The translations under genes were made by a program, and so were the position numbers. The notes under the pieces were generated by a model. That model had not been told where the DNA came from and made no database searches. It saw only the letters and a program-made list of their open reading frames with translations. A DNA stretch of 32,000 bases from Promethearchaeia archaeon (lineage in GTDB: Archaea > Asgardarchaeota > Lokiarchaeia > Sigyniarchaeales > SOKP01): the NCBI GenBank assembly GCA_046497275.1, contig JAWOFX010000080.1, positions 1 to 32,000 on the forward strand, in the 5' to 3' direction. Positions 131 through 20,621 of this stretch are shown here, piece after piece. Every line of letters starts with the position of its first letter. Position 1 is the first letter of the stretch.

Positions 131-2458
131 ATGAATAAACAATTACTAAAGGAGGCAGTTCTGAATACTCCTATACTCTCTCTAAAAGTGCCATTAAATT
201 ATACTAAGGCCATTCGCGAAGCTCCAGGAAGACCGATGATACTTAGACAAGCGCAAGGCTTTCAATACACGTTGGAAGATTTACCGATTATTATACGAGA
301 AGATGAACTAATTGTTGGAACTTTTGATGAAGATATCCCTGTTGCTATTCCTAGACCAGAATCTTCTGGTTTGAGAATTTTAAAAGAGTTAGATATGCTT
401 CCACAAAGACTAGTAAACCCAGTTAGAGTCAGAGAGAAAGATAAAAAAACATTCAAAGAGGAACTTGCACCCTATTGGGATAATTTCAGAATTGAAACAT
501 ACGCCCATGAAATAGCACCAAGTGAAGTTTTTGAAGGATTTTTTAGTGGAGGTGCTTATGTACCGACTGAGGTAGGAGGAATTGCTCATGCTGTGTTAAG
601 TTATCCAAGACTTTTATCTAAAGGATTGAAGGCATATATATCTATAGCCAAGGAAAAAATAGAATACTATAAAGATTTACTAGGTAAGCTTCCTGGTGCA
701 GATAAAAAGATATCATTTTACAAGTCAATTAAAATTGTTGGACAAGCATTAATTGATTTTGCTTTAAGATATTCAAAAAAAGCAAAAGAGATGGCTGAAG
801 CAGAAACCGATAAAATTAGAAAATTAGAATTAGAAACAATTTCAGAAGTCTGTAAAAATGTTCCGGCTAATCCCGCCAAAAATTTTTATGAAGCTATTCA
901 ATTTATCTGGTTTATACATATGGCAGTTCATATTGAGAATTTTGAACATGGAATTTCATTTGGTCGATTGGATCAATATCTTAAAAAATATTATATTAAA
1001 GATTCTCAATTAGCGATCCGCTTATTAAAAAATCTATTTTTAAAAACTAATGAGATTATAGCTCTGTATGACTCTATCGCCACACAATATTTCGGAGGAA
1101 TGGCAACTACCCAAAATGTGCTTATAGGTGGGATTGATAGTGAAGGAAATGATGCCACTAACGAATTAACCTATCTTATTTTAGACGCGTTTGAAGAAAT
1201 TGGTGTTCCAAGTCCAAATGTGGTCGTAAGATGTCATGAATCAACACCATCTGCATTATACAAAAGAATCGCGAACTTTTTGGCAAACGGAAAAAACCTA
1301 TTAGGACTTTATAATGATAAGGTCGTAATTGAAGCCTTAATGAAATATGGAATTCCTTTAGAAGAAGCTAGAAATTATGGTGTAGTAGGTTGTGTTGGAT
1401 TATCTACATCAGGTACATCTTTTGATAATACAGGAGCTATTTTTTTAAGTTTACCAAAAGCATTAGAATGTTCATTAGGAATAGATAAAACCATAATTCA
1501 TAAGATCATTGAGAATCATCACATGCCAAATAGATATAATTCAATTGATGATCTTATTACCTCATTTGAAGAATGTTTAAGATCTATCATGGAATTATCA
1601 ATTAAGGCGGGGAATGCTTTCCAACAAGCTCATCGAGAATTAAAACCTGCTCCTTTGATGTCATTATGTATTGATGGATGTTTTGAGAAGGGGAAAGACG
1701 TAAATAAGGGTCCAGCCAAATATAATTTTTCAGGGATACATACAACGGGGTTTTCTGATGTTGTTGATTCTTTAGCTGCTATTGATAAGGCGGTTTTCAA
1801 GGAAAAAAAGTTCACTATGAATGAATTAATTAAGGCTTTAAAAAAGAATTTCAGAAAGAATGAAATAATGAAACAATATTTAGAGAAAAAATGCCCTAAA
1901 TACGGTTCAGATAATGAAAATGTAGATAGAATCGCCAAAAGAGTTGCTCAAAGTATAAGAAATGCAGTGAAAGGTTTTAAATGTGATAGAGGAGATGATT
2001 ATCGGGTTGGAATACATGCAATGACAACCCATGTGGGATTTGGAGTTTTTACTAATGCCTTACCATCGGGCAGAAAAAAAGGGGAACCTCTCACTAAAGA
2101 TATTGCTCCTGGAAATTCGAGTGAAAAAGGATTGACCGCAGTTATTAAAAGTATTACTAAAATAGATCATTCTTTATTCGGTAATGGTTTAGCATGTACT
2201 CTTAATATAAATCCTGAAATAGCTAGGATTGAGGATGGGAATATTATTGAATCCCTTTTGAGGACATATTTTAAATTAGGAGGCTCCCATATACAATTTA
2301 ATGCAATTTCACCCACTAAATTAAAAAAGGCGCAAGAAAATCCAAATAAATATAAAAATCTCATGGTGAGAGTTTCGGGATATAGTGCACGATTTATAGA
2401 TTTACCCAAAGGAGTACAAGATGATATAATTTCAAGATATTGTTATGGAAATGTATAA
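131..2458 (+). CDS. Glycyl radical enzyme (PFL2/eliminase-like superfamily), substrate unknown
   Basis: 775 aa. C-terminal glycyl-radical loop LMVRVSGYS (Gly750, codon 2378). Cys loop YGVVGCVG (Cys421, codon 1391). Family motifs DELIVG, ISFGRLDQYL, QNVLIGG, GRKKGEPL and HIQFN. Cognate activase immediately downstream. Confidence 0.93.
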   Translation: MNKQLLKEAVLNTPILSLKVPLNYTKAIREAPGRPMILRQAQGFQYTLEDLPIIIREDELIVGTFDEDIPVAIPRPESSGLRILKELDMLPQRLVNPVRVREKDKKTFKEELAPYWDNFRIETYAHEIAPSEVFEGFFSGGAYVPTEVGGIAHAVLSYPRLLSKGLKAYISIAKEKIEYYKDLLGKLPGADKKISFYKSIKIVGQALIDFALRYSKKAKEMAEAETDKIRKLELETISEVCKNVPANPAKNFYEAIQFIWFIHMAVHIENFEHGISFGRLDQYLKKYYIKDSQLAIRLLKNLFLKTNEIIALYDSIATQYFGGMATTQNVLIGGIDSEGNDATNELTYLILDAFEEIGVPSPNVVVRCHESTPSALYKRIANFLANGKNLLGLYNDKVVIEALMKYGIPLEEARNYGVVGCVGLSTSGTSFDNTGAIFLSLPKALECSLGIDKTIIHKIIENHHMPNRYNSIDDLITSFEECLRSIMELSIKAGNAFQQAHRELKPAPLMSLCIDGCFEKGKDVNKGPAKYNFSGIHTTGFSDVVDSLAAIDKAVFKEKKFTMNELIKALKKNFRKNEIMKQYLEKKCPKYGSDNENVDRIAKRVAQSIRNAVKGFKCDRGDDYRVGIHAMTTHVGFGVFTNALPSGRKKGEPLTKDIAPGNSSEKGLTAVIKSITKIDHSLFGNGLACTLNINPEIARIEDGNIIESLLRTYFKLGGSHIQFNAISPTKLKKAQENPNKYKNLMVRVSGYSARFIDLPKGVQDDIISRYCYGNV

Positions 2459-3454: not shown

Positions 3455-4607
3455 ATGGTGAGTAACTTTATCTGAAATTGATGGATTAAAAGAAAAGGTA
3501 TCAAAAAAATTTACTCTGAATGAACTAAGCGGAGCATTCGGAGATTGGGGAACATTAATTCCTTTTATAATAGGTTATATATCAATAGTGAAATTAAATC
3601 CAGCAGGGCTTTTTCTATGTTTAGGACTTACGAATATTATATTAGGGATAAGATATAACCTCCCATTACCCGTAGAACCTCAAAAAAGTATAGGTTCTAT
3701 TGCTTTATCTCAAAAATGGTCTCCGAATAGAGTAATTTCCACAGGTTTTTCCACTGGTGTTGTTTGGTTTATACTTGGAGCCACTAAAATTCTTGAAAAA
3801 ATATCGAAAAAAGTCCCTAAACTCTCTGTACGCGGAATCCAACTCGGTCTTTCATTTATTCTGGGTTGGGCTGCTATCTTGATGTTTATAAATGATTATA
3901 TATTGGGATTAATTTCTCTAATGATTATCATTGTTTTCATTCGCTGGGAAAAATTCCCGACCGCAATTCTTTTGGTTGTATTGGGTATAGTGATGATAAT
4001 TTTTTCTGGTAAAATCAATATAGACATTTTAAAATTTAATGTTCCCATTATTACATTTCACTTTCCAACATGGGAAAATATTCTGATTGGATTTTTCATT
4101 GCTGGGATCGGTCAATTAATACTTACCTTAACAAATGTAATGATTGCTACAATAGCGCTATTAAAAGAATTATTTCCGGAAGATGAAGGAGATATTAATG
4201 CTAATAATTTAGCATCCAATATGGGAATCATTAATCTAATTAGTCCTTTTTTCGGAGGAATTCCTTTATGTCATGGGTCTGGGGGATTAGCAGCTCAATA
4301 TGCATTTGGAGCAAGAACGGGAGGTTCTATGATCTTTGAGGGGATTATAGAAGTTTTTTTAGGTTTATTTTTCTCAGATTTACTTTTTACTACTTTTCTC
4401 TTTTTTCCGGAAGGGATTTTAGCCGCTATGTTGATTTACACTTCGTTTACGTTAGGAAAAGTTGCATTAGATAAGATTAGCGATTGGAAAAAAATTGTAA
4501 TGGTTCTTGTGTCCGCTTTAGTTTGCTTATTTATAAATATTACATTTGGATTCTTGGTAGGTTTACTTTTTTATCTAATTGATAAAAAAATCCGGAGAAA
4601 TGAATAA
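3455..4607 (+). CDS. MOT1-like putative molybdate/sulfate transporter; 5' end lacks an in-frame canonical start (possible 1-nt frameshift near 3467)
   Basis: Hydrophobic ORF with PLPVEPQK, PLCHGSGGLAAQYAFGARTGGS and FPEGIL motifs. The frame stays open upstream of the track start (GTG 3588) to 3462 and encodes NELSGAFGDWGTLIP, the family N-terminal motif. ATG 3455 is one nucleotide out of frame. Confidence 0.8.
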
Positions 4608-4707
4608 TACAATTATAAAAATAAGATTTAAATGATCGATCTGCATAATGATTATTTGGGGAAGAAATAATAATAATTAAATATTGGTAATTAAAAGAGA
4701 TGATTTG

Positions 4708-5154
4708 ATGGAGGGCATAAAAGGTATATATATTATCAATCAACGAGGTACCTCAGTCTTTTCCTATGATCCTTTTAAGCAAAAGGATCAAGAATTAAAT
4801 TACTCTCTTTTAGCTAATTTATTTTCAGCTCTAAAAAACTTTAATTTAAAAACCGGTGAAAATGGTATAAATAGTCTTAGAATGAAGGAACAATGCTTTT
4901 TTTTCATTAAAGATGATTTTACGGGTAATTTCATTGTAGCAAAGTGTTCTCCACAGATTAAATCGAAAGAAATGTCAAATATCCTACTAGAAATTAAATT
5001 TGAATTTATAAAGAAATATATGAAAGAGATGTATTCTGACAATCTTATTAAGAAGAATTTGAATCTTAAATTTCGGGATACGATTCACGAGATATTAAAG
5101 GAAGAGACCAAAAGAAAAGAAATGATAAATTCAATGGGGTTGAAAAATTTTTAG
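4708..5154 (+). CDS. Stand-alone longin-like domain protein (Asgard-type)
   Basis: Pattern IYIINQRGTSVFSY ... LLANLFSALKNF ... GINSLRMKEQCFFF ... FIVAKC matches the beta-beta-alpha-beta-beta-beta-alpha-alpha longin layout as I recall it from Asgard proteins. ATG 4708 is preferred over track TTG 4684. Stop overlaps the rtcB stop by 4 nt. Confidence 0.65.
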   Translation: MEGIKGIYIINQRGTSVFSYDPFKQKDQELNYSLLANLFSALKNFNLKTGENGINSLRMKEQCFFFIKDDFTGNFIVAKCSPQIKSKEMSNILLEIKFEFIKKYMKEMYSDNLIKKNLNLKFRDTIHEILKEETKRKEMINSMGLKNF

Positions 5155-6599
5155 CCCTTTACCACTCCTATAGGAGTGAATCGAGCGATTTTTTCTACAA
5201 TTCCTAAATTATGGCTTACATCAACCACTTGATCAACATCTTTATAGGCCCCAGGTGCCTCTTCCGCTACGACTCGCATGTTTGCTGCTTTAATATGTAT
5301 CCCTCTTTTAGAAAGATCATCTAAAACACTACGAGCAGGCCATCTTTTATCAGCACTTCTTCTTGACATTACTCGACCCGCTCCATGTGCGGTTGATCCA
5401 AATGACAAATCCATTGCTTTTTCTTTTCCCACACATAAATAAGAAGATGATCCCATAGTTCCAGGTATTAATGCTGGTTGCCCTATATCTCTATAATCTT
5501 GCGGAATCTCTGGATGTCCTGGTGGAAATGCCCTAGTTGCTCCCTTACGATGGACATTTAATTTCATTTTTGTTCCATCTATATTATGCTCTTCAATCTT
5601 CAATATATTGTGGCAAACACCATAAATTAAATTCAAGTCTAAATCATCCACATTCTTGCCAAAGAATTTTTCGAATGACTCCCTAAGCCAGTGAGTAATT
5701 AATTGCCTATTACAAAAACCAAAATTAGCAGCACATGCCATCTGACTTAAATAATTTTGTGCTTCGTTGCTGTCTGCTGGAACGCATGCCAATTCTCTGT
5801 CTGGAACCTCGATTCCATATTTTTTCATGGCTTTTTCAACCATTCTCAATGAATCAGTACAAACTTGATGTCCAAAAGCTCTACTTCCCGTGTGAATCAT
5901 TACCGTTACTTGCCCTTCCTTTTTGATTCCTAATTTTTTTGCAATATTTTGGTTAAAAATCTTATCAACTTTTTGTATTTCTATGAAATGATTTCCACTT
6001 CCTAACGAGCCAACCTGGTCTATTCCTCTTTGTTTAGCTTTCTTAGATACTAAATCAGAATTAGCACCATCTAAACACCCATTTTCTTCTACGTGATCTA
6101 AGTCCATTTCTGTCGCATAACCATGTTCTAATGCCCAGTTTAGACCATTATTAGTTAAATCATCTAAATCTGAATAAGAAATATTAATTTTTCCTTCTGA
6201 GCCTAAGCCACTAGGAATGTTTTTATAGATAGTGTTTAATAAATCGGAAATGACATCTCTTACATCATTTTCGTGTAAGTTTGTTCTTAATAATCTTACA
6301 CCACAATTAATATCATATCCAACTCCCCCCGGACTAATCATACCATTATTTGCGTCTGTTCCAGCAACACCTCCAATGCAAAATCCATATCCTTGATGAG
6401 CATCAGAAAGTGCTATAGCATGTTTTTTGATACCTTTCAAAGTAGCAACATTACTGATTTGATCTAAAGTTCTATCTTGTTTTATTTTATTAAGTATATA
6501 ATCGTTAGCATATATCTTAACTGGAACCCTCATTTCAAAATTTTTAATCTTATGAGGTTTTATTTCATAGATATTTTCAGCTATTTTCTCTACATTCAT
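5151..6599 (-). CDS. rtcB: RtcB RNA-splicing/repair ligase (3'-phosphate/2',3'-cyclic phosphate to 5'-OH)
   Basis: DAHQGYGFCIGG, PGGVGYDINCGVRL, GSLGSGNHFIE, HTGSR, HRKGATR, HGAGR and EEAPGAYK. ATG 6599 is preceded by GGAG (track start is TTG 6608). No intein. Confidence 0.97.
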   Translation of the reverse strand: MNVEKIAENIYEIKPHKIKNFEMRVPVKIYANDYILNKIKQDRTLDQISNVATLKGIKKHAIALSDAHQGYGFCIGGVAGTDANNGMISPGGVGYDINCGVRLLRTNLHENDVRDVISDLLNTIYKNIPSGLGSEGKINISYSDLDDLTNNGLNWALEHGYATEMDLDHVEENGCLDGANSDLVSKKAKQRGIDQVGSLGSGNHFIEIQKVDKIFNQNIAKKLGIKKEGQVTVMIHTGSRAFGHQVCTDSLRMVEKAMKKYGIEVPDRELACVPADSNEAQNYLSQMACAANFGFCNRQLITHWLRESFEKFFGKNVDDLDLNLIYGVCHNILKIEEHNIDGTKMKLNVHRKGATRAFPPGHPEIPQDYRDIGQPALIPGTMGSSSYLCVGKEKAMDLSFGSTAHGAGRVMSRRSADKRWPARSVLDDLSKRGIHIKAANMRVVAEEAPGAYKDVDQVVDVSHNLGIVEKIARFTPIGVVKG

Positions 6600-6828
6600 A
6601 ATCTCCAAAATGATTTAAGTGTTTTAAAAATTTTTTATTAATTTTATAAGGATACATATGAAAATGTTTGTTATTTATTTATAGATCTCAAAGAATGTAA
6701 GAATTTACTAATTTACATAGATTAAATTCATCAAATTATATAACCTATAAACGGAATGTTTAAGTTCTCTATTGGGGTTTTTATTATATCTATAAGTCTG
6801 CTAAGAATTTAATCTTGAGGAATTATTT

Positions 6829-8796
6829 TTGATTGGTAATTTAAATATAAACTCTTTTAAACTACGCAAAGAATTTTTGGATAAATATAAAGGGAAACAA
6901 CCAGATTGGGGGCCTTTAGGATACTTCACTTATAAAAGAACATATGCTCGATATATTCACGATCATGAAAGAAAAGAAGAATATTGGGAAACTGTGAAAA
7001 GAGTTGTTGAAGGATGTTTTTCGATTCAAAAAGAACATTATCATGATTTAAAATTGCCTTGGGATGAGAATAAAGCTATGAGTTCCGCAGAGAAAATGTA
7101 TGAAAAGATTTGGAATTTTAAATTTACACCACCAGGGAGAGGATTTTGGATTATGGGAACTAAATTTATCGCAGAGCAAGGCTCGATGGCATTAAATAAC
7201 TGCGGATTCGTTTCAACTAAAGATATTGATATAAAAAATACCCAACCATTTGAATTTCTTATGTATTCTTTAATGGTTGGTGTTGGGGTTGGGTTTGATA
7301 CGAAAGGTGCTGGAAAAATTAAAATAAAGCAACCAAGTGAGAGACATAAAAAATTCACTATTCCAGATAGTAGAGAAGGATGGGTGAACGCTCTCAAGAA
7401 ATTACTGGAGGCATATTTTACTGGAAATGAAAAGCCGGAATTTGGTTTTTCAGAAATTCGTCCAAAAGGAGAACCACTTAAAAGCTTTGGTGGGGTAGCG
7501 TCAGGACCAGAACCACTTAAAAATATGCTAAATGATATAAATACCTTATTAAAGAGTAAAATAGGAGAACCTATAGGGGCTTTAGATATTCTAGACATCA
7601 TGAACCTCATAGGAAAGTGTGTGGTTGCTGGTGGAGTTAGAAGAAGTGCAGAAATTGCATTAGGGAAACCAGAGAATAAAAAATTTATAAAGGCAAAACA
7701 AAATAAAGAGAAACTACAAGATCACAGATGGGTGAGTAATAACAGTATAATAGCCAAAAAAGGTATGGATTATTCTTTTGTAGCGGAACAGATTTCCAAA
7801 AATGGAGAACCAGGTATTTTTTGGTTAGAAAATGCCCAAAATTATTCCCGTATGGGTGATCCTCCTGATAATAAGGATAAAAAGGCTTTAGGAATCAACC
7901 CATGCGGAGAGCAAACATTAGAATCTTTTGAACTGTGTTGTTTGGCGGAAGCCTATCCCTCTCGACATAATAGTTGGAAAGAATTTAAAGAAACTTTAAA
8001 ATATGCATATTTATATGCCAAAACGGTCACATTGGTGAATACTCATGTTAAGGTTACGAATGCGGTTATGCTTAAAAACAGAAGAATGGGTATATCTCAG
8101 ACGGGAATTACTGAAGCGTTTACTAAACATGGAAAAAATAAGATGATTGATTGGTGCAAAAAAGGGTATTCCTATTTAAAAAAATTAGATAAAAAATATT
8201 CAGATTGGCTCTGTGTACCAGAATCAATAAAAATTACGACTATTAAACCAAGCGGAACTGTTAGTCTTCTTCCCGGTGTTTCTCATGGAATACATTTTCC
8301 TCACTCTAAATATTATATAAGAAGAATCCGTATTCAAGAAACCTCTGAACTTATTGATATTGCGAAAACTGCGGGTTATAAGGTGGTTAAAGATAAATAT
8401 TCTGATAACACTATGTTAATTGAATTTCCAGTAAAAAAAGAATATTTCACAAGAGGAAAAAGGGATGTGACTATTTGGGAACAAGCAGAAAACGCAGCTA
8501 TGTATCAAAAATACTGGTCCGATAATCAAGTATCCGTGACGATAACTTTTAAGGAAGAGGAAAAAAAAGATATTAAATATATTCTTCAAAGTTATGAAGA
8601 TAAGCTAAAAGCCGTGGCATTTCTTCCCTTAAAAGAACATGGGTATGAACAAGCTCCTTATGAAGAGATTTCAGAAAAAAAATATAAAGAGCTTTCAAAA
8701 GTTCTTAAACCATTATATTTAGATAAATTAAAAGAACAAGCGAGAGGTCAGATTTTCTGCGATTCAGAGGAATGTGAGATACATTTAAACAAATAA
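6829..8796 (+). CDS. nrdJ: Adenosylcobalamin-dependent (class II) ribonucleotide reductase, monomeric RTPR type, no ATP cone
   Basis: TYKRTYAR, FTPPGRG, LNNC, GVGVGFD, GGVRRSAEI, NPCGEQ (Asn/Cys/Glu finger loop), NRRMG, TTIKPSGTVS and C-terminal redox pair CDSEEC. TTG start after GAGG. Confidence 0.93.
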   Translation: MIGNLNINSFKLRKEFLDKYKGKQPDWGPLGYFTYKRTYARYIHDHERKEEYWETVKRVVEGCFSIQKEHYHDLKLPWDENKAMSSAEKMYEKIWNFKFTPPGRGFWIMGTKFIAEQGSMALNNCGFVSTKDIDIKNTQPFEFLMYSLMVGVGVGFDTKGAGKIKIKQPSERHKKFTIPDSREGWVNALKKLLEAYFTGNEKPEFGFSEIRPKGEPLKSFGGVASGPEPLKNMLNDINTLLKSKIGEPIGALDILDIMNLIGKCVVAGGVRRSAEIALGKPENKKFIKAKQNKEKLQDHRWVSNNSIIAKKGMDYSFVAEQISKNGEPGIFWLENAQNYSRMGDPPDNKDKKALGINPCGEQTLESFELCCLAEAYPSRHNSWKEFKETLKYAYLYAKTVTLVNTHVKVTNAVMLKNRRMGISQTGITEAFTKHGKNKMIDWCKKGYSYLKKLDKKYSDWLCVPESIKITTIKPSGTVSLLPGVSHGIHFPHSKYYIRRIRIQETSELIDIAKTAGYKVVKDKYSDNTMLIEFPVKKEYFTRGKRDVTIWEQAENAAMYQKYWSDNQVSVTITFKEEEKKDIKYILQSYEDKLKAVAFLPLKEHGYEQAPYEEISEKKYKELSKVLKPLYLDKLKEQARGQIFCDSEECEIHLNK

Positions 8797-17292: not shown

Positions 17293-19572
17293 ATGAAAGA
17301 TATATTATGGTTTGATGAAATTGGCAAAGATGATATTGAGGCGGTAGGTGGAAAAGGAGCTAATTTAGGAGCAATGTCAAATCAAGATCTTCCCATACCT
17401 CCTGGATATGCTATTACTTCAAAAGTTTATTTCGATTTTATTGAAAAAGTGGGGATTAAAGAAAAAATTAAGGATATCTTAACTGATTTGGATGTAGAAG
17501 AAACTGAAAAACTTCAAGAATCTTCAAAAAAAATCAAAGAATTATTTCTAAAATCGGAAATCTCTGATTTTTTTAAGAATTTATTTTTCGAACCATTTAA
17601 TGAATTAAAAGAGGCAGAGGGAAATGAATTATATGTAGCGGTAAGAAGTTCAGCAACCGCGGAAGATTTACCTGAAGCCAGTTTTGCTGGTCAGCAAAAT
17701 ACATATTTAGGAATTGATGAAGAAAATTATATTGATTCTATTATAAAATGTTGGGCGAGTCTTTTTACTGCAAGAGCGATATATTATAGAGAGAATAATA
17801 ATTTTAGCCACATGGATGTTGGTATTTCTGTGATTGTTCAAAAATTAATAGACGCAAATGTTGCAGGGGTTATGTTTTCTAAACATCCTTCCACAGGGGA
17901 TAATCAAGTATTAATTGAAGCAGGATTAGGTTTAGGAGAAACAATTGTTTCAGGAAGTATTACTCCAGATACCTATCTTGTAGATCCTGAAGATTGGAAG
18001 ATTATAGATAAAGAAATTTCAAATCAAAGTTTTAAAATAATTCGGGAAGGAAATAACACGAAGGAAATAGAATTGTCTGAGAATGAAGGTAATAAGCAAA
18101 AGTTATCTGATGATAATATCCTTAAACTCGCAAAAATTGGAAAAAATATTGAGAAATTTTATGATAACGAAGGACAAGATATGGAATGGGCATATTCCGA
18201 CAAGCTTTATATACTTCAATCAAGACCTATCACAACTATTCCAGAAAAACAAGAGAAAACAAGAGAATCAAAATCCACAAATGCTGAAGTAATTTTAAAA
18301 GGTCTTGCTGCCAGCCCAGGTATAGGTGCTGGAACAGTTAAATTAATTGAAGATGCAAGCCAATTAGACAAAATTGCAAATAATGATATACTTGTAACTA
18401 CAATGACAACCCCAGATATGGTTCCAGCGATGAAAAAAGCGGAGGCAATTGTAACCAATGAGGGAGGAATGACCAGTCATGCTGCGATTGTTTCTAGAGA
18501 ATTGGGAATTCCCTGTACTGTAGGTACTGGCGAAGCTACAAAAAAATTAAAAGAGGAAGATGAAATTACTGTTGATGGCAAACGAGGGGTGGTATACAAG
18601 GGAATTCAAAAAGATATGCTTGAAGAACATACTAAAAAAGAATCCCACGAAAAGGTTGCCAGGTCTGCAATAATTACGGGCACAAATCTTTATGTAAATC
18701 TTTCTTCTCCAGATTCCGCTGAAACTGTAGCAAAACGAAATATTGATGGAGTGGGATTATTTAGAGCGGAATTCATCGCAGCTCAGATTGGTATACACCC
18801 ACAAAAGGCATTAAAAGAAGGAAAAGGAGAAGATTGGTCAGATCAATTAGCCGAGGGCATTGAAAAAGTAGCTGCTGCCTTTGATCCCAAACCTGTAGTA
18901 TATAGAACACTTGATTTTAAGACAAATGAATATAGAGAATTACCTGGAGGGGAGGAAGCTGAACCTGAGGAGAATAATCCGATGTTAGGCTTTAGAGGAT
19001 GCCATCGGAATGTCAAAAGCAAAGGTGTTTTTGAATTAGAGTTAAGAGCGATCAAAAAGGTAAGGGATAAATTTGATCATAAAAACCTTCATGTAATGTT
19101 GCCATTTGTTAGGACAGAGTGGGAAGTTAAAAAAGCAATTGAAATTATGGAAAAAAATGGATTAGAAAGAAATAAGGATTTTAAATTATGGATAATGGTC
19201 GAAGTACCAAGTACAGTATTTTTAATTGATAATTTCCTTAAATATGTTGATGGCGTGAGTATTGGAAGCAATGATCTTACTCAATTGACCTTAGGAGTGG
19301 ATAGAGACAATCAAAACCTAAGCGAACTATTTGATGAACGTGATCCTGCTGTTTTAAAAGCCTTGGAAATGGTAATTAAAGGTTGTAAGCGTAATGAAAA
19401 AACAGTTTCAATATGTGGACAAGCACCTTCAGTATATGAAGAAATAGTTGAGTTCTTAGTAAAACATGGCATTACAAGTATAAGTGTCAATCCAGACAGA
19501 ATTGAACCTACCAGACGACTTATTGCACGAGTCGAAAAAAGATTTTTGATGAACCAATTAAGAGAAAAATAA
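17293..19572 (+). CDS. ppsA: Phosphoenolpyruvate synthase (pyruvate, water dikinase)
   Basis: GGKGANLG, AVRSSATAEDLPEASFAGQQ, QSRPITT, phospho-His motif GGMTSHAAIVSRELGIP, NPMLGFRG, SIGSNDLTQ and ICGQAP. Confidence 0.95.
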   Translation: MKDILWFDEIGKDDIEAVGGKGANLGAMSNQDLPIPPGYAITSKVYFDFIEKVGIKEKIKDILTDLDVEETEKLQESSKKIKELFLKSEISDFFKNLFFEPFNELKEAEGNELYVAVRSSATAEDLPEASFAGQQNTYLGIDEENYIDSIIKCWASLFTARAIYYRENNNFSHMDVGISVIVQKLIDANVAGVMFSKHPSTGDNQVLIEAGLGLGETIVSGSITPDTYLVDPEDWKIIDKEISNQSFKIIREGNNTKEIELSENEGNKQKLSDDNILKLAKIGKNIEKFYDNEGQDMEWAYSDKLYILQSRPITTIPEKQEKTRESKSTNAEVILKGLAASPGIGAGTVKLIEDASQLDKIANNDILVTTMTTPDMVPAMKKAEAIVTNEGGMTSHAAIVSRELGIPCTVGTGEATKKLKEEDEITVDGKRGVVYKGIQKDMLEEHTKKESHEKVARSAIITGTNLYVNLSSPDSAETVAKRNIDGVGLFRAEFIAAQIGIHPQKALKEGKGEDWSDQLAEGIEKVAAAFDPKPVVYRTLDFKTNEYRELPGGEEAEPEENNPMLGFRGCHRNVKSKGVFELELRAIKKVRDKFDHKNLHVMLPFVRTEWEVKKAIEIMEKNGLERNKDFKLWIMVEVPSTVFLIDNFLKYVDGVSIGSNDLTQLTLGVDRDNQNLSELFDERDPAVLKALEMVIKGCKRNEKTVSICGQAPSVYEEIVEFLVKHGITSISVNPDRIEPTRRLIARVEKRFLMNQLREK

Positions 19573-19613: not shown

Positions 19614-20621
19614 ATGAGTTTAGATCTATTGACAATAGGAAGTTGTACACTTGATTGTATTATTAAAATTAAAGATATATTGAGATTTGAGTTATTGAGC
19701 AATGATGAGGTTAAGAAATATACAGCTATCGAGTATAGTAAAAAACTGAATATTGAAAATGTACGTTTTTTTCCTGGTGGATCAGCAGCAAATATCGCTT
19801 CCGATTGTGCAATGATGAATATAAAGAGTAGTTATATAGGGATGATTGGAACGGACTTCTCAGCAAAAATGTGCTTAGATGATATGAAAAGTAGAGGCGT
19901 TAATATCTCACATGTGAACCAAACAGAAAAGGATAAAACAGCCTTTTCTGTTATTTTGAAAACAAATTGGGGGAAAGATAGAAGCATTTTAGCATATAAA
20001 GGAGCTAATGATTTGATATCACCTACTGATATTAATGAAGATCTATTCAAAAAAATACAAGCTTTTGCTTGGACGTCATTAACTAAAGAGAATAGTTGTA
20101 AAGCAGTTGATAAATGTATAGATTTAACTAAAGAAAATGGAGGAAAGGTGTTTGCTGCTCCAAGTATGTCTATTATTAAAAATAATGAAAAATGGGCTGA
20201 AAAACTCATTTCAAAAAGTGATGTATTATCGTTAAATAAAGAAGAGGCGCAAGCATTTACAAATATAGAGGAAACTGTACATATCATTAAAGAGCTTATG
20301 GATAAAAGTTTAGATCTGGTTTCTATTACCAACGGCTCTAATGGATCCGTCCTCTCAGATGGTAAGAACATTATTAATAATGGTGTATATGATATTTCTA
20401 TAAAGGACATGACTGGTGCTGGAGATGCTTTTATGAGTGGAATAATTTTCTCTCATTTAAACAATTATGATTTGGAGAAAACCTCAAAATTTGCTTCAGC
20501 TATAGCTTCTTTTGAAGCTATGAAAACAGGGGTTCGTGAAGGGATACCTAAAGATTTGAATAAAATTAATAAATTTATCGAAGAAAATACCCTAGAACAA
20601 GTTATATCTGAATTAAAATAG
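19614..20621 (+). CDS. PfkB/ribokinase-family carbohydrate kinase
   Basis: PGGSAANIA (PfkB signature 1), NKEEA and DMTGAGDAFMSG (anion hole/catalytic Asp). Starts 41 nt after ppsA. Confidence 0.9.
   Translation: MSLDLLTIGSCTLDCIIKIKDILRFELLSNDEVKKYTAIEYSKKLNIENVRFFPGGSAANIASDCAMMNIKSSYIGMIGTDFSAKMCLDDMKSRGVNISHVNQTEKDKTAFSVILKTNWGKDRSILAYKGANDLISPTDINEDLFKKIQAFAWTSLTKENSCKAVDKCIDLTKENGGKVFAAPSMSIIKNNEKWAEKLISKSDVLSLNKEEAQAFTNIEETVHIIKELMDKSLDLVSITNGSNGSVLSDGKNIINNGVYDISIKDMTGAGDAFMSGIIFSHLNNYDLEKTSKFASAIASFEAMKTGVREGIPKDLNKINKFIEENTLEQVISELK

Follow-up and report, generated by a model that had tools for sequence, protein, structure and literature searches.

A conserved, mostly Asgard subfamily of glycyl radical enzymes without the Cys-loop glutamate of characterized eliminases and isomerases

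Introduction

Every PFL-like glycyl radical enzyme (GRE) of known function is bacterial, and a 2026 review describes the archaeal GREs as a clear gap (PMC13450708). All GRE eliminases acting on C-O, C-N, or C-S bonds, together with three isomerases, keep a CXE motif whose Glu is bonded to the substrate and is essential in CutC; the GREs without a Glu on the Cys loop are PFL and TdcE, which have a Cys-Cys pair, the X-succinate synthases, and phenylacetate decarboxylase, in which Gln484 is essential (PMC13450708). Benzylsuccinate synthase (BSS) and MASS bind one carboxylate of fumarate in an oxyanion hole made by the Cys loop and the other through an Arg at Cys+15 (BSS R508, MASS R492) (PMC12358834). 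The function of the archaeal PFL2 (PflD) of A. fulgidus has been debated for about two decades, with glycerol dehydratase and alkylsuccinate synthase as the two proposals (PMC13450708). Here, we describe a GRE gene in the first 32,000 nucleotides (nt) of contig JAWOFX010000080.1 of a Promethearchaeia archaeon (assembly GCA_046497275.1); this whole stretch, which starts at contig position 1, is called the window below. The 775-amino-acid (aa) product has Gly where its relatives have the Glu of Cys-x-Glu, and the comparisons that follow indicate that it is a member of a conserved, mostly Asgard GRE subfamily without the Glu kept by every characterized eliminase and isomerase. A first-pass annotation of the window had drawn attention to this loop against the background that GRE eliminases and decarboxylases have Cys-x-Glu, which is correct for the eliminases but not for all decarboxylases, given the essential Gln484 of phenylacetate decarboxylase (PMC13450708).

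Results

The Cys loop was read directly from the DNA. Codons 1388-1399 are ggt tgt gtt gga and encode G420-C421-V422-G423 in the open reading frame (ORF) at 131-2458, and in the HMMER alignment G423 lies directly beneath the Glu of GCVE in both A. fulgidus PFL2 and C. butyricum glycerol dehydratase. The CXE motif of GRE eliminases and isomerases is thus replaced by C421-V-G423, and either Gly or Ser is found at its last position throughout the clade described below. The loop carries a single Cys, which follows G420, and no Cys-Cys pair. The GRE fingerprint, RVxG[FWY]x6-8[FL]x4Qx2[IV]x2R (PMC13450708), is complete, comprising R747-V-S-G750-Y, L758, Q763, I766, and R769. Pfam searches returned the PFL-like (554 bits) and Gly_radical (87 bits) domains. 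The broad subfamily model TIGR01774 ("formate C-acetyltransferase/glycerol dehydratase family") was reached narrowly (688.5 bits, with the cut-off at 678.2), and none of the GRE equivalog models in NCBIfam (HypD, CutC, HpsG/HpfG, IAD, HPAD, and PFL) was reached, with scores of 110 to 470 bits against cut-offs of about 1000 to 1150. The HypD, CutC, and HpsG/HpfG models gave the best of these scores, 424 to 470 bits, below cut-offs of 1000 to 1109.

An AF2 model made from 20 clade sequences (pLDDT 89.5, pTM 0.92) supports the ten-stranded barrel fold with its Cys loop: the TM score is 0.93 to both 2f3o and 1r8w, and C421 aligns with C433 of glycerol dehydratase. Foldseek placed 2f3o first (TM 0.93, 39% identity), followed by glycerol dehydratase, propanediol dehydratase, PflD, CutC, and HypD. 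This top structural match, A. fulgidus PFL2/PflD (2F3O), is also the top sequence match (612 bits), and it resembles the window's GRE in being archaeal, about 775 aa long, and of the same fold with a single Cys. It differs in having GCVE and ENYEQAIS and in lacking E272, H629, D657, and T690 of the clade. The next-best relatives were glycerol dehydratase (C. butyricum, 1R8W/1R9D; 476 bits) and 1,2-propanediol dehydratase (5I2A, 9RCO; 425 bits), at a TM score of 0.93. The PFL2-type fold, the single Cys, and an activase with a ferredoxin-like insert are shared with the GRE eliminases and isomerases in general (CutC, HypD, HpyG/HpzG, IslA/IseG, HpsG, HplG, YbiW, and PflD).

The Gly is a property of a large group of proteins. 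A search of 5.8 billion proteins yielded 109 homologue cluster representatives at ≥50% identity, 108 with GCVG and one with GCIG, and nearly all reading GCVGLSTSG; the next matches, at ≤37% identity, had GCVE or GCLE. In a library of representatives at 50% identity, the nearest other cluster (P0122, 47% identity) had GCVSLSTSG, and beyond it came Cys-x-Glu proteins at ≤40%. Across 54 distinct homologue DNAs, the codon at the Gly position was GGA in 38, GGG in 9, GGC in 4, and GGT in 3; since all four Gly codons are in use, the residue is selected at the protein level. Two of the outcomes that the first-pass annotation had allowed for, a sequencing error and a private mutation in a family of GCVE proteins, are thereby ruled out. 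The window's genome (3.85 Mb) carries five more GRE paralogues, all of the Cys-x-Glu type. Two of these five have open frames of about 1000 aa, suggesting N-terminal extensions.

A FastTree phylogeny of 30 clade sequences and 145 other representatives, for which clade members were thinned to one in four and fragments shorter than 700 aa were left out, recovered the GCV[G/S] group, with P0122 inside it, as one clade with a support of 1.0. Gly is fixed across the clade, with Ser in one sub-branch. The tree places this clade within a set of Cys-x-Glu lineages, with P0132, a CVE protein, as its sister (support 0.98). The suggestion that GCVG might define a clade was therefore borne out, and the protein did not group with any characterized Glu-less GRE, its nearest relatives being Cys-x-Glu proteins and its nearest structure, A. 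fulgidus PFL2, having no assigned function. Identity within the clade ranges from 47 to 94% over many genomes. It is near certain that the GCV[G/S] subfamily is monophyletic, is under purifying selection, and descends from ancestors that had Cys-x-Glu and were of the kind of A. fulgidus PFL2. A literature search found no paper treating this clade, and archaeal GREs are listed as unassigned in the review (PMC13450708). The proposal of an uncharacterized GRE class stands.

In a sample of 400 genomes of the window's phylum, every match at ≥59% identity fell in the window's own GTDB family, where 30 of 134 genomes had one. The other Asgard families gave matches at 37 to 44% identity, which were PFL2-like, with GCVE(L/F)APFG in four of four checked and GCVE in the Asgard matches at 41 to 44%; true PFL2-like genes with this loop are present in Asgard genomes as paralogues separate from the clade. 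The submitters' names for clade-bearing genomes are Promethearchaeota, "Hodarchaeota," and Thor-, Hermod-, and Heimdallarchaeota. Outside Asgard, the clade was found in two thermophilic metagenome-assembled genomes, Archaeoglobus sp. JdFR-41 and Ca. Geothermarchaeum rappei JdFR-14, at 53 to 54% identity.

Loss of the Glu was accompanied by other changes. Setting 99 full-length members against 120 Cys-x-Glu representatives, we looked for residues fixed in ≥97% of the clade and carried by ≤10% of the outgroup, and found N270, E272 (beside H273-G274), T327, G423, N433, H629-A630, D657, and C689-T690. Two of these, E272 and D657, are new invariant acidic residues. The replacement of the N-terminal ERA motif by SLKVP and the presence of LTKDIAP where relatives have ..DG(V/I)SP, both noted in the first-pass annotation, were confirmed. 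By alignment counting, glycerol dehydratase N156, H164, H281, S282, Y339, C433, E435, D447, and Y640 correspond to A142, H153, H273, G274, T327, C421, G423, G435, and H629, respectively, with H164 and H281 kept. Aside from C433 and E435, we take the mapped glycerol dehydratase positions to be substrate-binding residues. C433 and E435 are described as substrate-site residues (PMC13450708). Co-changed residues thus sit at positions that align with the substrate-binding residues of glycerol dehydratase, and both of its acidic substrate ligands (E435 and D447) are, by this mapping, Gly in the window's protein. The sulfonate-binding Arg/Gln/Arg of the C-S lyases have no counterpart here, as judged by counting positions from the residue numbers in the review rather than from an alignment. 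The first-pass annotation had gone on to suggest a different chemistry or a larger pocket; this stays conjectural, although it is strengthened by about 10 co-changed invariant positions, the new acidic residues E272 and D657 among them, and by the Gly found in place of E435 and D447.

The GRE has its own activase, whose start overlaps the GRE stop by 14 bases. Its C43-x3-C47-x2-C50 motif is intact, and its TIGR02494 score of 327 bits exceeds the cut-off of 174, in agreement with the earlier description of an intact activase and an RVSGY loop. The GRE is thus intact and can presumably be activated. The arrangement of GRE, activase, (transporter), and a 156-aa ORF, with RtcB on the opposite strand, is shared by the window, a same-genus relative (L057), and a 94%-identical metagenome contig (L142). 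The transporter at 3588-4607 is a weak clue to the substrate because it is missing in the closest relative. The ribonucleotide reductase, PEP synthase, and PfkB-family kinase of the window showed no link to the GRE in relatives' loci.

To describe gene context more widely, we called and clustered ORFs in 62 clade loci and counted neighbors with hidden Markov models in the fetched flanks of 61 clade and 98 Cys-x-Glu outgroup loci. A beta-keto-acid cleavage enzyme (BKACE) was present in the flanks of 9 clade loci and an MFS_2 transporter in those of 8, compared with none of the 98 outgroup loci in either case, while an activase adjoined the GRE in 12 clade loci and 51 outgroup loci. BKACE lay near clade GREs in four gene orders (the L155 type, L128, L084, and L161; Table 1), with a 3HCDH-family dehydrogenase beside it in three, and transporters of the MFS_2, MFS_1, or AEC type adjoined the GRE in several. 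The LarA-type homologue of L084, a nickel-pincer hydroxyacid racemase relative, fell below the LarA equivalog model (141 bits against 740).

A large neighborhood conserved in two genera was considered as a source of functional clues and rejected, since its genes (Elp3, GatE, GatD, ribosomal protein L2, PyrD/PyrK, Nop56, fibrillarin, and TFB) represent housekeeping synteny. The typical order is PyrD/PyrK, Elp3, an Asgard-only 357-aa protein (single or duplicated), GRE, GatE, GatD, and L2, usually with no adjacent activase. The Asgard-only protein, 357 to 374 aa long and directly upstream of the GRE, fills the place between elp3 and the GRE in about 20 loci, either alone or as a tandem pair. Its N terminus resembles a ribbon-helix-helix (QQTISISPALKEWIERY); it had no Pfam match, and in the protein atlas it matched only Asgard hypothetical clusters, apart from a weak link to the AF_0136_C family. 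The protein may be a regulator.

Glu-less Cys loops proved not to be a rarity among uncharacterized GREs: about 27 of the 150 best cluster representatives have no Glu there. In a large bacterial family (Sporomusa, Mogibacterium, Anaerovoracaceae, Oscillibacter, and gut Clostridiales), the Cys loop is GCVVPHxR, and Cys+2 is not Glu. The residue that corresponds to glycerol dehydratase H164 is a Glu in this family (VGEIT or IGEIS), and an activase adjoins the GRE in nearly all loci. This family may perhaps be another case of a relocated acid/base.

Table 1. The GRE gene, its window, and related loci. Positions refer to the window unless a contig (C) or locus (L) is named
Feature	Position	Strand	Remark
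GRE, PFL2/glycerol dehydratase-like superfamily, 775 aa (P0001)	131-2458	+	Pfam, NCBIfam, AF2 model with Foldseek
N-terminal S17-L-K-V-P21	179-193	+	Cys-x-Glu relatives have a (C/S)xERA motif there
N270-F-E272-H273-G274-I-S276	938-958	+	N270 and E272 invariant, clade specific; H273/G274 align with glycerol dehydratase H281/S282
Cys loop G420-C421-V-G423-L-S-T-S-G428	1388-1414	+	Gly at the position of the relatives' Cys-x-Glu glutamate
H629-A630	2015-2020	+	Invariant, clade specific; H629 aligns with glycerol dehydratase Y640
D657, in PLxxDIAP loop	2099-2101	+	Clade invariant; in 0 of 120 Cys-x-Glu outgroup representatives (70% Gly)
C689-T690	2195-2200	+	T690 substitutes an Asn present in 90% of outgroup GREs
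Glycyl radical loop R747-V-S-G750-Y, radical site G750	2369-2383	+	Complete GRE fingerprint
GRE-activating radical-SAM enzyme, 320 aa	2445-3407	+	CX3CX2C motif at 2571-2594, ferredoxin-like insert; Radical_SAM and Fer4 domains
Anion-transporter-like membrane protein (MFS_MOT1/SulP-like)	3588-4607	+	Present in same-genus locus L057, missing from 94%-identical locus L142
156-aa ORF	4684-5154	+	Downstream of GRE and activase also in the two closest loci (L057, L142)
RtcB RNA ligase	5151-6608	-	Ordinary neighbor
Adenosylcobalamin-dependent ribonucleoside-triphosphate reductase	6829-8796	+	TIGR02505, 407 bits
PEP synthase	17293-19572	+	
PfkB-family sugar or ribose-1-phosphate kinase	19614-20621	+	
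Five further GRE paralogues, same genome	C172:82014-83966, C65:12815-14773, C172:8759-10741, C117:3792-5744, C111:19471-20976		Cys-x-Glu
L155-type gene order (seven loci)			Alpha/beta hydrolase, 3HCDH-family dehydrogenase, AEC-type transporter, BKACE, DUF4332, Zn-ribbon protein, GRE, MFS_2 (GPH) transporter
L128 gene order			GRE strand: 3HCDH, GRE, Zn-ADH directly downstream; other strand: 3HCDH, BKACE, Fer4 protein, NMO-like gene
L084 (Archaeoglobus sp. JdFR-41) gene order			Aldehyde:ferredoxin oxidoreductase (AOR) divergent; LarA-type racemase overlapping GRE start; activase, 3HCDH, BKACE, amino-acid permease after
LarA-type homologue of L084	L084 7961-9370		
AOR of L084	L084 5763-7760		
L161 gene order			BKACE ends 8 bp before GRE
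BKACE/3HCDH module of the window's genome	C104 (L221 7165-11211)		End of 11.5-kb contig: 3HCDH, 328-aa ORF, 3HCDH, BKACE (70% identical to GRE-linked BKACE of L128)
Asgard-only protein upstream of GRE	L043 10992-12065	-	
Bacterial GCVVPHxR GREs	Loci L090-L135		For example, L095 10001-12328 (Sporomusa acidovorans) and L104 (Mogibacterium)

Discussion

The closest relative, A. fulgidus PFL2, transfers no function to the clade because its own is still debated. We propose, with low confidence, that the clade's enzymes are thiyl-radical lyases whose substrate is a carboxylated hydroxy or keto acid and whose acid/base function has been relocated off the Cys loop. The activase would install a radical on G750, which would in turn generate the C421 thiyl radical; both steps are expected because the motifs are intact, the activase is coupled, and the GRE mechanism is established (PMC13450708). 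C421 would then take a hydrogen atom from a small carboxylate-bearing substrate of the hydroxy- or keto-acid type, the anionic group of which may dock on the Glu-free, Ser/Thr/Gly-rich Cys loop (GCVGLSTSG), much as in the oxyanion hole of the X-succinate synthases. The proton transfers performed by Glu in eliminases and isomerases would pass to relocated residues, for which E272/H273, H629, and D657 are candidates. The product or substrate might be tied to a route of 3-hydroxyacid dehydrogenase and BKACE by which beta-hydroxy acids are shortened to acyl-CoA and acetoacetate. We favor a carboxylated substrate because Gly, Ser, and Thr abound in the Glu-free loop (GCVGLSTSGTS) and because the neighbors that recur handle free hydroxy and keto acids or transport organic solutes. 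For this explanation as a whole, the subfamily together with the mechanism, we would put the probability at roughly 0.4; the mechanistic part, taken by itself, is somewhat doubtful.

Several observations weigh against the proposal. About 35 of the 61 clade loci lie in housekeeping synteny and are functionally uninformative. No BKACE was found near the GRE in the window or in its two closest relatives, and the genome's orthologous BKACE/3HCDH module is on a separate contig, C104. Joining C104 to the start of the window's contig was considered and rejected, since window bases 1-130 match the region upstream of the GRE in the 94%-identical metagenome locus, which has no BKACE. The window's genome has four BKACE paralogues, and the enrichment of BKACE near clade GREs is suggestive only, because the genomes of this group carry about four such paralogues each and the outgroup control was mostly bacterial. 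BKACE also names no substrate, because the GRE-linked enzyme reached no equivalog model (265 bits on Kce against a cut-off of 382, and lower on others). E272, D657, H629, and T690 are merely putative neighbors of C421 in the fold, and D657 lies in a long coil of lower AF2 confidence.

The alternative that comes nearest to the proposal above, though in our view distinctly unlikely, is a conventional 1,2-eliminase or isomerase whose substrate is neutral or positively charged (an amino alcohol, for example, or a quaternary amine such as carnitine), whose base now resides at E272 or D657, and in which the added acidic residues bind the positive charge. The closest characterized relatives are all eliminases or isomerases, the clade has gained two invariant acidic residues, and an AOR or ADH able to handle an aldehyde or ketone product adjoins two clade members. 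In addition, 3HCDH, BKACE, and an alpha/beta hydrolase together form a known gene set for the breakdown of carnitine to glycine betaine. However, the carnitine dehydrogenase models, whose cut-offs are 414 and 592, gave the 3HCDH neighbors only 63 to 89 bits, we identified neither a CutC-like aromatic box in the protein nor a methylamine-handling gene in the flanks, and a reach of E272 or D657 to the substrate is conjectural. Decarboxylation of a carboxylic acid, either of the Kolbe type, in which the substrate carboxylate adjoins the thiyl radical as in HPAD, or by hydrogen-atom transfer as proposed for phenylacetate decarboxylase, would suit a Glu-free loop with a carboxylate near C421 and the organic-acid enzymes and transporters in the gene context, and phenylacetate decarboxylase already dispenses with a Glu at Cys+2 in favor of its essential Gln484 (PMC13450708). 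Yet similarity to the decarboxylase structures is low (HPAD, 185 bits; AAD, 235 bits), the indoleacetate decarboxylase and HPAD large-subunit models are far from reached (321 bits against 1100 and 259 against 1150), no HPAD-type small subunit was found in the 62 loci, and aromatic-acid pathway genes were not seen in the flanks. We consider such an activity improbable.

The absence of Cys-x-Glu also brings to mind the X-succinate synthases (BSS, 4PKF; MASS, 9O8U), the alkyl- and benzylsuccinate synthases that add a hydrocarbon to fumarate, need no acid/base Glu, likewise have none at Cys+2, and use the Cys loop as a carboxylate oxyanion hole (PMC12358834). Single-Cys archaeal "GC-motif" GREs, the PflD-like genes of Hermodarchaeota, were annotated as Ass/Bss by Zhang et al. 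in 2021 (PMC8163825); such a function has been proposed for A. fulgidus PflD as well, and 3-hydroxyacyl dehydrogenase genes lie near some clade members. We nevertheless regard hydrocarbon addition as very improbable. The fumarate-binding Arg at Cys+15 corresponds, by spacing rather than by alignment to BSS, to A436, and the clade members shown have no Arg or Lys at 422-442. Characterized members are alpha-beta-gamma(-delta) complexes (PMC13450708), whereas none of the 62 loci had a same-strand ORF of 40 to 120 aa with ≥4 Cys within 1.5 kb of the GRE. Among the PFL-like structures, these synthases are also the farthest away (266 bits for MasD and 202 for TutD, compared with 476 for glycerol dehydratase; Foldseek ranks 46 to 48 at 24 to 26% identity), the pocket changes in the clade are polar or charged (E272, N270, N433, H629, D657, and T690) with no hydrophobic pocket for a hydrocarbon, and the neighboring BKACE works on free beta-keto acids, not on the CoA esters of beta-oxidation. 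That the enzyme is catalytically dead or purely structural is hardly credible: a residue essential in CutC (E491) has been lost and the genome holds six GRE paralogues, but the Gly loop, Cys, fingerprint, and translationally coupled activase are all intact, and the strong conservation (47 to 94% identity in many genomes) extends to the fixed new pocket residues. Least of all do we expect a pyruvate or 2-oxoacid formate-lyase, for which the chance is practically negligible in spite of the public record name and the Pfam PFL-like domain. The label "formate C-acetyltransferase" does not fit because the paired cysteines required in PFL and TdcE (PMC13450708) are absent, with one Cys (G420-C421) in the loop; moreover, TIGR01255 gave 110 bits against a cut-off of 994, and E. 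coli PFL aligned over only the C-terminal 190 residues, at 79 bits.

A bolder reading would make the clade a further GRE reaction class outside the formate-lyases, decarboxylases, hydroalkylases, eliminases, and isomerases, native to Asgard archaea, feeding or drawing from a BKACE route, and the first functionally distinct PFL-like GRE in archaea; this we consider unlikely.

Because the Glu kept by all characterized eliminases and isomerases is gone and the pocket appears to have been rebuilt, the clade offers a defined target for new radical chemistry. It also bears on the metabolic reconstruction of the archaea closest to eukaryotes. Clade genes now carry the label of pyruvate formate-lyases, and PflD-like Asgard GREs related to them that of alkyl- or benzylsuccinate synthases. 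Neither label agrees with the sequence features tested here, so caution is due wherever formate production or hydrocarbon degradation has been deduced from such names. The clade is a real, conserved variant of the GRE kind.

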